Shown here in pieces: positions 48,190 through 50,578 of a stretch of DNA of 64,000 nucleotides; the first letter of the stretch is position 1; the number at the start of each line of letters is the position of its first letter. The translations under genes were made by a program, and so were the position numbers. The notes beneath the pieces are model-generated. The model did not search any database. It saw nothing but the letters and a program-made list of their open reading frames with translations, and was not told where the DNA came from. The DNA is from Pseudomonadota bacterium. Lineage in GTDB: Bacteria > Pseudomonadota > Gammaproteobacteria > Burkholderiales > Burkholderiaceae_C. The stretch covers positions 2,975 to 66,974 of the forward strand of contig JAKBNS010000185.1 of NCBI GenBank assembly GCA_021830925.1. Reading direction: 5' to 3'.

Positions 48190-48276
48190 TGCTCACTTTG
48201 GCAAACCCGTCGAAAGGCGGGGACGCAAAGCCTCCGGTCTAACGGCAGAAATGCCCATGACAGCGGGGTTGCCGGC
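48190..48276 (+). ncRNA. c-di-GMP-I (GEMM) riboswitch aptamer
   Basis: GGCAAA-CCCGTC-GAAA-GGCGGG-GACGCAAAGCCTCCGGTCTAA...GACAGCGGGGTTGCC matches the hallmark GEMM elements (GAAA tetraloop stem, GACGCAAAG, CCGGxCTAA receptor, AGCGGGGTT). Confidence 0.92.
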
Positions 48277-48391
48277 GCGAGTGCGCGTCGTGACTTCTCA
48301 AGCTGTAGACGTATTGGCCGCTCAAACCGGCCGGATGGCAGCGTTGCCACGGTCCGCCCCGAATGGGGCGGGACCCCAGGGAGCAACCGCC

Positions 48392-50578
48392 ATGTCCAGT
48401 CTACAGAACCTCTTTCGCACCGCCGCACTTCCGATCCTCGCCGCGATGACCCTCGCGGGCTGCGGGGGCGGCGGCGGGGCAGCCACCGGCGCCGTCGGCG
48501 CCGCGGCATCGACCCAGTCGTACACCAGTACGAACAACACGCTCGGCGCAGGCACGACCACGCCGATCGTCTCGACGAGCACGACGTCGGCACCGAGCAC
48601 GAGCACGAGCACGAGCACGAGCACGAGCACGAGCACGAGCACGAGCACGAGCACGAGCACGAGCACGACGACGCCCGTGCCCGTGCCCAGCAGTTTCACC
48701 GCCGAGAATTCCGTCCAGGTTCCGCATCTCGTCTCGGGTGTGAAGACCTGGGTCACGATGGACCTTCCCTGGTCGTCGTGGACCAACGCCAACGTCACGA
48801 CCGCGGGTTCGTCCACGGGGACGACCTATTACGTCTCGCTCACGGGAAGCGACAGCAACAGCGGAACGTCTGCCCAGAGGGCCTTCGCCACGGTGGCGCA
48901 CGCGGTTTCGTTGATGCAACCCGGCGACACGCTGCTGTTCGAGCCCGGCGTGTATCACCAGACGATCAACCTGGGCGGCGGGCTGTCCGGCACGAGCGGA
49001 CACCCCATCACCTTCGGCAACGCGGGAGGTGGCGCCGTGGTGCTCGATGCCTCCCCGGTGATCGCGCCTTCGTCCTGGTCCGCGGTGGGAGGTTCGGTCT
49101 ACCGGGCCAGCGTGAGCAAGACCCAGGACGGATCGTCCAACCTGGCCGTGCCCACCGGCACCGATCCGTCCACCGCGATGGTCGTCGTCGTCAACGACAA
49201 GGCGCTTCGCCTGGCGCCCAATGACAACCCGGCCAGCGTCACGCCGGGGAGCGGCACCTTCGCCTACAACGGCTCCACGCTGACCGTGGATTTCGGCTCG
49301 GCAGTTCCCTCGTCGGCCACGGTGGTGGTGGCCAACGCGAACAACCCGAGCCCGATTTATTGGTACGGCGGCAATTACCTCGTGTTCGACGGGCTGACGG
49401 CCCAGGCCGGCGGCAATTCCGGGATCTGGGGCTATGGAAGCTCCGTGACCGTCGAGCATTGCGTCAGCCAGTACAACATCAAGGCCGGCATCAATTTCAT
49501 GATGATGTCGGGCAATGCGAACGCGAACAACCAGGCGCTGCAAAACCTGGTCTACATGAATTCGCTGCACAACTGGCCTCGCGGCACCAACGGCTTTTAC
49601 TCGTCCGGCGGGGGCTGGAGCGGTGGCCTTGCCTTCAGCGATGCCTACAAGGGAGTCGCGCGCGGCAATCTCGTGATCGACAACGGTGGCGAGGGGATCA
49701 TCAGCTACGGCAGCGGCCCGTCGGAGACCACCGGAAGCGTGCTGTTCGAGAACAACCTCAGCATGGACAACTGGTCGATGCAGATGTATTTCGACAACCA
49801 GCCCAACGACGTCGCGCGGGGCAACCTGCTGTACTTCTCCGGTTTCGACACCAGCACCTGGGAGTCCCAGACGGACGATCTGTACAAGTACAGCACCTGT
49901 CTGGCGCTGGCGGACGAGGCGAACTCCTCCGCCAACATGACGGCCAACCTGGCCAATTCGCAGGTCTACAACAATCTGCTCGTCGGATGCCGCCTGGGGA
50001 TCACCGAATACTGGGAAGGCAATGTGCTGTCGGGTCAGCACGGGCTGAAGAACACGCTGATCGCCAACAACACGATCGTGCTCATGCCCACGACGCCAGC
50101 GTCCACCTACACGGCGGGCATCTATCTGTGGGACAACGGCACCGCGAACACCAACAGCGCCGTGGTGAACAACCTGGTCATCGGATGGGACTCGACAGAG
50201 CCCGTGATCTGGTATCAGGGAACGGGGGCCGACCCGGGCGTGCAGGCCGATCACAATGCCTACTGGAACGCCGGCAACAGCACGACCTTCATGCTGGGGT
50301 TCAACACCGTGTCGAAGGACACCTTCGCGCAGTGGCAGGTGGCGACCGGATACGACCTGGCCGGCTTCTTCGCCGACCCCATGCTCGTGGGCACGAGCGC
50401 ACTGTCCAGCCCGTCGCATGCGCCGTATGACCAGGCCAACGCCGTGCCGCAATCGGGCTCGCCGCTGATCGGCGCCGGCATCGACCTCTCGTCGTCCTCG
50501 CCGGTGGCTGGTGAGACCTTCTCGACCAACCTGGCCGGCATGGCGCGGGGTTCGAGCTGGACCATCGGAGCGTTCTGA
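48392..50578 (+). CDS. Secreted lipoprotein with Ser/Thr stalk and right-handed parallel beta-helix (pectin-lyase-like/DUF1565)
   Basis: Lipobox LAGC (Cys24); YYVSLTGSDSNSGT...MQPGDTL..PGVY; Asn-rich beta-helix repeats; C-terminal ADPMLV..GSPLIGAG..IGAF; RBS AGGGAG. Confidence 0.75.
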   Translation: MSSLQNLFRTAALPILAAMTLAGCGGGGGAATGAVGAAASTQSYTSTNNTLGAGTTTPIVSTSTTSAPSTSTSTSTSTSTSTSTSTSTSTSTTTPVPVPSSFTAENSVQVPHLVSGVKTWVTMDLPWSSWTNANVTTAGSSTGTTYYVSLTGSDSNSGTSAQRAFATVAHAVSLMQPGDTLLFEPGVYHQTINLGGGLSGTSGHPITFGNAGGGAVVLDASPVIAPSSWSAVGGSVYRASVSKTQDGSSNLAVPTGTDPSTAMVVVVNDKALRLAPNDNPASVTPGSGTFAYNGSTLTVDFGSAVPSSATVVVANANNPSPIYWYGGNYLVFDGLTAQAGGNSGIWGYGSSVTVEHCVSQYNIKAGINFMMMSGNANANNQALQNLVYMNSLHNWPRGTNGFYSSGGGWSGGLAFSDAYKGVARGNLVIDNGGEGIISYGSGPSETTGSVLFENNLSMDNWSMQMYFDNQPNDVARGNLLYFSGFDTSTWESQTDDLYKYSTCLALADEANSSANMTANLANSQVYNNLLVGCRLGITEYWEGNVLSGQHGLKNTLIANNTIVLMPTTPASTYTAGIYLWDNGTANTNSAVVNNLVIGWDSTEPVIWYQGTGADPGVQADHNAYWNAGNSTTFMLGFNTVSKDTFAQWQVATGYDLAGFFADPMLVGTSALSSPSHAPYDQANAVPQSGSPLIGAGIDLSSSSPVAGETFSTNLAGMARGSSWTIGAF
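48595..48666 (+). repeat. Perfect tandem repeat (GAGCAC) x12 encoding Ser-Thr repeats
   Basis: Counted directly: 12 consecutive units. Confidence 0.95.

Follow-up and report, generated by a model that had tools for sequence, protein, structure and literature searches.

The stretch of DNA analysed here, a window of 64 kb on contig JAKBNS010000185.1 of a Pseudomonadota bacterium, carries a gene for a 728-aa beta-helix lipoprotein that is preceded on the same strand, 115 nt before its start codon, by an aptamer of the class I riboswitches for cyclic di-guanosine monophosphate (c-di-GMP-I, GEMM-I). The gene order at the locus is glnA, a hypothetical gene, ntrB, ntrC, xth (-), the riboswitch with its gene, a gene for a methyl-accepting chemotaxis protein (MCP; -), murI (-) and fumA (-), and this order is kept in every close orthologue (L001, L002, L161 and L162). 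The sequence-only reading that preceded this analysis had described a near-canonical GEMM aptamer about 115 nt 5′ of the gene and a cassette standing with the MCP gene between xth and murI; the aptamer was recovered with coordinates exact to the base, and the arrangement proved to be shared by the close orthologues. The aptamer and the parts of the gene are the following.

48190..48276, + strand: c-di-GMP-I (GEMM-I) aptamer, full-length match to RF01051 with one compensatory change in P2
48392..50578, + strand: coding sequence (CDS) of the 728-aa beta-helix lipoprotein, from ATG 48392, stop codon included
48392..48463, + strand: predicted signal peptide with lipobox L21-A-G-C24, from the sequence and an AlphaFold helix over residues 2-20
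48464..48703, + strand: disordered Gly/Ser/Thr/Pro tether (residues 25-104), with a predicted local distance difference test (pLDDT) below 50 for residues 22-101
48575..48668, + strand: in-frame (ACGAGC) x 15.7 array encoding (Thr-Ser)n, Tandem Repeats Finder score 151
48704..50575, + strand: right-handed parallel beta-helix (residues 105-728) with an Asn ladder, from AlphaFold2, Foldseek and invariant columns

The c-di-GMP-I aptamer, its distribution and its probable transcript

The whole window was scanned with the covariance models of Rfam 15, and the Infernal search with RF01051 that had been proposed earlier gave a match at 48190-48276 (+) over model positions 1-87 of 87, with 84.8 bits (E 2.7e-15) far over the gathering score of 35. 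No other Rfam family was matched elsewhere in the 64 kb, and in a permissive local scan of the intergenic region the next matches after RF01051 were noise (E >= 1.3). In the cmscan alignment the ligand-contacting positions G20, A47 and C92 of the Vibrio cholerae Vc2 riboswitch correspond to G48200, A48227 and C48272, respectively, and the GAAA tetraloop of the aptamer lies at 48212-48215. A47 is a position that we take to contact the ligand in the Vc2 structures, while G20 and C92 are described as contacting c-di-GMP in Vc2 (PMC11705072). The aptamer is invariant among the orthologues except in the terminal P2 helix, where one A-U pair is replaced by U-A in a compensatory change, and since the flanks and the protein have diverged to 86%, this constancy indicates purifying selection. 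The element is very probably a functional c-di-GMP riboswitch that acts in cis. Ligand specificity cannot be proven from sequence, and the aptamer might bind another dinucleotide (3′3′-cGAMP, as Geobacter GEMM-Ib does) or be an inactive relic. Both are very improbable: the position that discriminates cGAMP is a G (G48200), as in c-di-GMP binders, which argues for c-di-GMP over a cGAMP-specific variant, the parent model RF01051 outscores the variants of its clan, and the purifying selection on the aptamer speaks against a relic.

The same aptamer and leader were present in every orthologous locus with upstream sequence (L001-L004, L161, L162 and L163). In an Rfam scan of 30 loci the aptamer was found in L001, L002 and L003 alone (84-86 bits), and pattern matching added L004, L161, L162 and L163. 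All aptamer-bearing orthologues are at least 86% identical and stand at the same xth/MCP/murI locus. Riboswitches were absent in front of homologues of 38-57% identity, both in the Rfam scan (0/26 loci) and by pattern in L032-L040. Conversely, among 120 metagenome loci (L041-L160) that share a 23-nt aptamer segment (GGGACGCAAAGCNTCCGGTCTAA), no relative of the beta-helix protein was found near the similar aptamers. The pairing of riboswitch and gene is specific to one narrow lineage; the earlier description as lineage-specific therefore stands for the pairing but not for the protein, the family of which comprises 405 cluster representatives. A Pfam search of 102 open reading frames (ORFs) downstream of the similar aptamers gave PilM (26), He_PIG (21), fn3 (20), chitinases (5-7), GHL15 (4) and one unrelated beta-helix. 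The 26 PilM ORFs are highly similar, encode 354 aa for type IV pilus assembly and form a recurrent riboswitch-pilM arrangement; GH18 chitinases and He_PIG/fn3 surface proteins recur as well.

The sequence was found in mine-drainage, biofilm and sludge metagenomes. Contigs of two mine-drainage metatranscriptome runs (X22 and X23) were mapped onto the window, and the depths given here are contig depths, which are a poor measure. For the leader the depth was 99.7 in X22 (contig 48208-48363) and 12.9 in X23 (contig 48210-48513), for the coding region 24-32 and 2-5, and for xth 0-3 in X22 and mostly 0 in X23 (one 186-nt contig, depth 2.9); the MCP gene had depths of 0 (X22) and 0.5-6 (X23) next to the beta-helix gene. 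The X23 contig 48210-48513 bridges aptamer and coding region. These data argue for in situ expression of the beta-helix gene, with the aptamer included in its mRNA. Some limits apply: the contigs could contain DNA, they break at 48208-48210 in the conserved aptamer core, which makes the transcript start unreadable, and the leader:CDS depth ratio of 3-4 could equally reflect attenuation or a stable leader fragment. An excess of the leader of 3-4 fold is often seen with riboswitches. In another run, X37, a contig of depth 119 (cassette-bearing contigs: 11-20) joins xth to the sequence just past the beta-helix stop codon and skips 2616 nt (47995 to 50612); with merely 21 nt on its shorter side, the junction is a weak hint at a related strain without the riboswitch-gene cassette.

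Structure of the leader

For the leader, an alignment of seven orthologous leaders (mean column identity 91%) was used, and ensemble folds were calculated for the six complete ones. The features upstream of and within the leader are listed below.

48096..48127, no strand assigned: palindromic arms TTGAC...GTCAA, arms invariant and spacer (21-22 nt) variable in four orthologous intergenic regions
48138..48153, + strand: candidate sigma-54 -24/-12 element TGGAAAATAAGCCGCA (relatives TGG-N9-CTGCA)
48179..48183, + strand: P0 5′ strand (AGUUA), paired with 48291-48295 in minimum-energy folds
48189..48194, + strand: P1 5′ strand (GUGCUC), paired with 48279-48284 (GAGUGC)
48274..48289, + strand: hairpin A (GGCGCG-AGUG-CGCGUC), stem conserved, loop variable and covarying with the 5′ flank
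48291..48295, + strand: P0 3′ strand (UGACU), inside the invariant segment GUCGUGACUUCUC
48303..48310, + strand: 5′ strand of a long-range helix (CUGUAGAC), RNAalifold consensus, 100% paired in 7 leaders
48336..48349, + strand: predicted hairpin C (UGGCA-GCGU-UGCCA), 100% paired, invariant
48351..48374, + strand: hairpin D, GC-rich stem of about 10 bp that ends 3 nt before the Shine-Dalgarno sequence (SD), no U tract
48377..48382, + strand: SD AGGGAG, 9 nt before the ATG, invariant in 7 leaders
48399..48406, + strand: 3′ strand of the long-range helix (GUCUACAG, codons 3-5), paired with 48303-48310

The helix P1 arises spontaneously in unconstrained folds of the window and L001 leaders, is offset from the aptamer junction by a 5x5 internal loop, and shows changes on both sides that keep the pairing between leader types in three of its six pairs. 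An alternative register adjoining the junction (alignment columns 12-19 with 100-107) was 89% paired with zero compensatory changes, and the register 48189-48194/48279-48284 was preferred. P0 is paired in all leaders yet invariant and hence uninformative. The 3′ strand of P1 consists of the loop and the closing pair of hairpin A; because these nucleotides are common to both, P1 and hairpin A are mutually exclusive, and hairpin A would be the ligand-free alternative. In all six leaders the state with hairpin A was calculated to be 2-16 kcal/mol more stable than the P1 state without ligand, a gap that ligand binding could close, and the arrangement fits a P1 helix stabilised by ligand.

Further downstream, the RNAalifold consensus contains a long-range helix that closes a domain holding hairpins C and D, the SD and the AUG. 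In L001 this helix carries one double change from G-C to A-U, the coding-side half of which is a synonymous change in codon 4 (CTA to TTA), and across the ensemble folds codons 2-5 are merely 9-39% unpaired. Over the whole leader five pairs show double changes (P1 contributes three, the long-range helix and the aptamer one each); the covariation score of 0.093 compares with 0.062 in shuffled alignments (0/500 reach the observed value), and slid controls gave 0-2 such pairs. An intrinsic terminator was rejected, as the scan of the + strand was empty and hairpins A and D are without a U tract. Two further pairings were dropped: P1 5′ strand as an anti-SD (UGCUC:GAGCA), which is not kept in L001-type leaders, and a duplex of the aptamer 3′ strand with the SD-AUG spacer (-17.2 kcal/mol), which is present in window-type leaders alone. 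A candidate relay between GCGUC (48285-48289) and GACGU (48308-48312), of 4-7 bp, is compatible with all variants.

Upstream of the leader, a scan for sigma-70-type promoters gave no site. The TTGAC...GTCAA arms are a candidate regulator site or promoter element. The possible sigma-54 element has an invariant GG and an invariant GC in four orthologues, 10 nt apart as such promoters require; its consensus match is weak and may be due to chance, and as a lead only, it would put the transcript start near 48164. PEP-CTERM genes are reportedly sigma-54 dependent in Zoogloea. A 10-nt inverted repeat (CAAAGTTCAC / GTTAACTTTG; 48162-48189, 90% complementary) is partly conserved in the orthologues and, if transcription begins upstream of 48162, could give rise to a 5′ hairpin in competition with the 5′ strands of P0 and P1.

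The beta-helix lipoprotein, its family and its genomic context

The N-terminus of the protein (MSSLQNLFRTAALPILAAMTLAGC-GGGGG) comprises R9, a hydrophobic core and the lipobox LAGC with Cys24, followed by five glycines and a Ser/Thr/Pro-rich stretch. The lipobox agrees with the pattern [LVI][ASTVI][GAS]C, and the family consensus keeps L-x-x-C-G-G, so that lipidation at Cys24 is predicted. A glycine at position +2 denotes sorting to the outer membrane under the E. coli rule, which may not hold for this host. A longer ORF from 48251 was rejected, as its start would fall within the aptamer and indels in orthologous leaders interrupt its frame. Orthologue L161, identical in all else, is about 20 residues shorter at the Thr-Ser array, and other orthologues differ there too; the length of the tether is therefore strain-variable, probably by slippage. 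The LAGC lipobox, Gly linker and Ser/Thr stalk that the sequence-only reading had described were all found, with the (ACGAGC)n array as the stalk.

AlphaFold2, run with a 42-sequence alignment, gave a model with a predicted template modelling score (pTM) of 0.83, in which residues 105-728 mostly have a pLDDT above 85 and regular three-strand coils extend over residues 105-660. Foldseek against the PDB gave 53 matches at E<=0.001, and all 50 listed ones are carbohydrate-active beta-helix enzymes or phage tailspikes. The best match was XylC of glycoside hydrolase (GH) family GH120 (PDB 3vst; E 4e-13, template modelling (TM) scores 0.46/0.52, 13% identity), besides GH136 (E 1e-10) and Pel9A of polysaccharide lyase (PL) family PL9 (1ru4; TM 0.63 on target); weaker matches were BT_1002, K1 capsule lyase, GH110, PL6 and phage tailspikes, and the viral library of Foldseek gave depolymerase-type tail proteins. 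The Asn-rich beta-helix expected earlier was in this way borne out by structure prediction and Foldseek.

Similarity in sequence to solved proteins is limited to the N-terminal cap. The PDB sequence search found the cap motif alone (YYVSLTGSDSNSGT...), in 3vst (GH120), 6kqs (GH136 lacto-N-biosidase) and 5olq (PL9 rhamnogalacturonan lyase); only 3vst shows clear sequence similarity (profile E 9.3e-17; chain residues 3-94), and the family profile extends the PDB matches no further than about 95 residues. A cap motif of DUF1565 type (YYV-x-x-GSD-x-N-x-G-T) lies at residues 146-159, whereas the Pfam profile itself (PF07602) gave no match to the window protein. The DUF1565/PL9-like start proposed before is therefore upheld for the cap and for nothing beyond it. 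The window protein had no match in NCBIfam and none to PF22842 (Pel9A-like) or PF14592 (Chondroitinase_B) at E<=1. Over 42 family members, weak Pfam matches were to Beta_helix (37, E<=0.01), Chondroitinase_B (23), Pel9A-like (9, best E 2.3e-7) and DUF1565 (8, best E 1.2e-4), and most homologues have precomputed Pel9A-like matches. When 1.84 billion sequences, each representing a cluster at 50% identity, were searched with a family profile, 405 of these representatives matched at E<=1e-30, most of them over full length. The protein belongs to an uncharacterised family inside the pectin-lyase-like superfamily that is claimed by no curated family. In the family alignment, invariant charged residues fall on successive coils as a row R424-E453-R476 followed by K499, together with E434, D468 and E509. 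In the model this row is as would be expected of a substrate groove or active site for an acidic polymer.

The gene has a GC content of 0.61-0.67 against 0.70-0.74 around it. The lower GC noted in the sequence-only reading was thus measured, but not as a sign of foreign DNA: horizontal transfer was rejected because GC at the third codon position is native (0.87, native range 0.79-0.97) and the drop lies in codon position 1 (0.53). The dip is explained by the composition of the protein, which is rich in Asn, Ser, Thr and Tyr.

The clustering of neighbours at 33 homologue loci showed that polysaccharide genes recur, and about 10 of the 33 have such neighbours within 4 kb. Paralogues from the riboswitch-bearing lineages of metagenome-assembled genomes (MAGs) SKS4.bin49 and ZJ1.bin49 lie inside exopolysaccharide clusters of XrtA/PEP-CTERM type (L019/L020, cluster at about 40-5770; L013/L014, about 1790-9190). 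In L020, genes for a priming glycosyltransferase, a UDP-sugar dehydrogenase, an NAD-dependent epimerase/dehydratase and the beta-helix protein follow on one strand, and the corresponding glycosyltransferase ORF of L019 matched TIGR03013 (XrtA/PEP-CTERM type) with 465.6 bits (cut-off 393). The beta-helix gene of L013/L014 is flanked by a UDP-sugar dehydrogenase gene on one side and by genes for a Wzy_C protein and an XrtA/PEP-CTERM-type amidotransferase on the other; the latter scored 643 bits with TIGR03108, under the strict cut-off of 817. The window copy is a detached paralogue, and no PEP-CTERM sorting signal was found at its C-terminus (...SSWTIGAF). In Thiomonas sp. X19 and a related MAG (L038 7019-7984, L040 7279-7875), a homologue of 55-57% identity is preceded by a small protein without Pfam match and adjoins a NarL-type two-component system and three GGDEF genes, a riboswitch-free context for which a link to c-di-GMP is possible too.

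The window is rich in genes for c-di-GMP turnover and chemosensing, among them the following.

3249-5339, - strand: protoglobin-EAL protein
14129-16117, + strand: GGDEF-EAL protein
18439-20487, - strand: DUF4118-PAS-GGDEF protein
20825-23392, + strand: second large MCP

The beta-helix protein had been regarded as a possible output of the cyclases and phosphodiesterases of the window. Three c-di-GMP enzymes were confirmed, but they merely co-occur at a distance of 28-45 kb and point to no specific circuit; they show no more than that the host uses c-di-GMP. Between them and the riboswitch locus, the window also carries a NAD-linked formate-dehydrogenase-like pair (26706-31653, +; Nuo51-type subunit and molybdopterin subunit) and, after it, TamA and TamB of the translocation and assembly module (33327-39289, +).

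Proposed control of expression, proposed function and relation to known systems

The explanation that best combines these results, though its chances as a whole stay a little under even, is a cis-acting c-di-GMP switch on the translation of a tethered exopolysaccharide glycanase. The mRNA of the stand-alone beta-helix lipoprotein gene would open with the class I riboswitch, binding of c-di-GMP would stabilise P1 (48189-48194 with 48279-48284) and exclude hairpin A (48274-48289), and the long-range helix (48303-48310 with 48399-48406) would shut the SD/AUG domain by default, with control at translation initiation. In the ON direction, formation of P1 would free GCGUC (48285-48289) for pairing with GACGU (48308-48312) of the closing strand and so open the start region. 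The lipidated protein would hang from the membrane on its flexible 80-residue Ser/Thr tether and, as a lyase or hydrolase, cut the cell's own uronic-acid-containing XrtA/PEP-CTERM-type exopolysaccharide, whereby c-di-GMP would tune the processing of the matrix.

Control at the translational level is mildly favoured, given that there is no terminator, that the start region is closed by default and that a covarying helix lies over codons 3-5. The closed default state also underlies a tentative preference for an ON switch. A number of observations weigh against this account of the leader: the covariation derives from six to seven closely similar leaders, L002 fits P1 solely after a register shift, and forcing the aptamer with P1 or with hairpin A left the accessibility of SD, AUG and early codons unchanged in all six leaders, so that equilibrium folding does not explain the connection from sensor to start site. 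The relay helix is short and carries no compensatory change, which leaves the sign of regulation to inference. An OFF switch, somewhat less probable than ON, would suit a dispersal enzyme: c-di-GMP would lock the aptamer, so that the closing strand could seal the start region, and the glycanase would be made solely at low c-di-GMP, loosening the matrix and releasing cells. The class I riboswitch that precedes the C. difficile protease gene zmpI would be an analogue. The best-studied riboswitch of class I, Vc2, works as an OFF switch in which the ligand-bound P1 represses translation (PMC11705072). The position of the gene apart from the exopolysaccharide operons that carry its paralogues would suit a different timing, and, once the aptamer unfolds, ACAGC of its 3′ strand is able to pair with GCUGU in the closing strand; this pairing is merely 5 bp long and in invariant columns, however, and the ligand-free folds of all six leaders are already closed at the start region, which leaves little to repress. 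Rho-dependent termination or an effect on leader or mRNA stability within the 115-nt leader appears unlikely, slightly more so than an OFF switch. It would accord with the deeper leader contigs in both metatranscriptomes and with the lack of any ligand-dependent change at the ribosome-binding site in equilibrium folds. On the other hand, there is no intrinsic terminator, contig depth is unreliable, the conserved core may draw reads from other riboswitches (loose ends at 48200-48245 in X23), and a translational element is suggested by the helix over codons 3-5 with its covariation.

That the protein is a carbohydrate-active enzyme is likely from its modelled fold and the charged row. For its substrate, the host's own exopolysaccharide has about an even chance, through guilt by association: the reading rests on the paralogues in XrtA/PEP-CTERM clusters with genes for uronic-acid sugars. 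UDP-sugar dehydrogenases make uronic acids, and polysaccharide clusters normally carry a polymer-trimming enzyme such as AlgL, PslG, PelA or BcsZ. Against an enzyme of this kind it counts that catalytic residues could not be mapped by sequence onto GH120, PL9 or PL6, the similarity being confined to the cap, that the window protein reaches 23.1 bits with Pfam Beta_helix (PF13229), under the gathering score of 25.9, that most loci of the 38-57% homologues are isolated single genes in many unrelated places, and that the window gene, between xth and the MCP gene, has no exopolysaccharide genes beside it. The alternative would be a surface adhesin or glycan-binding beta-helix without catalytic activity; beta-helices serve as adhesins too, some relatives bear InlB B-repeat or Ig-like modules, and similar aptamers often precede surface proteins with He_PIG, fn3 or Ig domains. 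It is nevertheless improbable, since every significant fold match is an enzyme (hydrolases, lyases and phage depolymerases), many invariant charged residues (R424, E453, R476, K499, E434 and E509) are in register on the coils as in an active-site groove, and two paralogues occupy the usual place of a processing enzyme inside polysaccharide-synthesis clusters. The glycan-binding or matrix-remodelling role suggested before therefore agrees with the GH120, GH136, PL9, PL6 and depolymerase folds and with the paralogue clusters, while its adhesin variant found no positive support.

Compared with the V. cholerae riboswitches Vc2 (tfoY) and Vc1 (gbpA), the element belongs to the same Rfam family and shares the G20/A47/C92 contacts, the GAAA tetraloop and a ligand-stabilised P1; as with Vc1, a secreted or surface glycan-related protein would stand downstream. 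It differs in its unrelated structured platform of 115 nt, in a P1 set back by the 5x5 internal loop, in the gene regulated and in its host, a high-GC betaproteobacterium from mine-drainage and biofilm samples. The Bc2 riboswitch of B. thuringiensis is reported as a class I aptamer before a collagen adhesion protein gene (PMC4933901). The present element resembles Bc2 and the C. difficile zmpI riboswitch in that it stands ahead of one gene only, the product of which is secreted or at the surface and shapes the matrix or attachment; those switches use intrinsic terminators in low-GC Firmicutes, whereas the window leader has no terminator but a helix over the first codons. On the protein side, XylC is the best structural match, but the sequence similarity is that of the cap, and its catalytic Asp/Glu residues are unalignable; XylC is furthermore cytoplasmic and no lipoprotein, in contrast to the lipobox-bearing window protein. 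Pel9A, 5olq and the PL6 chondroitinase B and alginate lyases share the right-handed beta-helix fold (TM on target 0.46-0.63) and have polyuronates as substrates, in keeping with the uronic-acid genes next to the paralogues, but the window protein is about 200 residues longer than Pel9A and has no match to the corresponding Pfam families. AlgL, PslG, PelA and BcsZ are analogous in function alone, without kinship in sequence or fold; two paralogues hold such a cluster position, while the window copy is outside any cluster and has its own RNA sensor.

A literature search turned up no work that links c-di-GMP riboswitches to beta-helix proteins, polysaccharide lyases or glycoside hydrolases, and none on such riboswitches in Thiomonas; matches for 'pectate lyase' concern protein effectors in Dickeya and were set aside. 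The c-di-GMP riboswitches of Vibrio, Clostridioides, Bacillus and Geobacter are well understood; those of high-GC Betaproteobacteria from acid mine drainage and from sludge biofilms, where the present sequence occurs, have been studied much less. Class I riboswitches ahead of surface or secreted, often glycan-related proteins are an ordinary theme, and the present case, in which a known riboswitch class is applied in an ordinary way to a new target, overturns nothing.

By its switch, one uncharacterised gene is marked out as an output of c-di-GMP signalling, which gives a handle on a widespread beta-helix family. The start-site-enclosing helix of the leader is directly testable, and the leader, if it works as proposed, would be a compact c-di-GMP reporter in these organisms. 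A more far-reaching and rather unlikely possibility is that a new family of carbohydrate-active enzymes processes the XrtA/PEP-CTERM uronic-acid exopolysaccharide and that one detached paralogue has been wired to c-di-GMP through an RNA sensor with an unusual platform enclosing the start codon. XrtA/PEP-CTERM exopolysaccharide is the floc and biofilm matrix of many environmental Betaproteobacteria, and the paralogues in its clusters suggest a concrete and testable substrate. If this is true, the family would be a new class of glycanases for floc and biofilm matrix polymers, and the gene would form a one-gene, protein-free link from the second messenger to the remodelling of the matrix.

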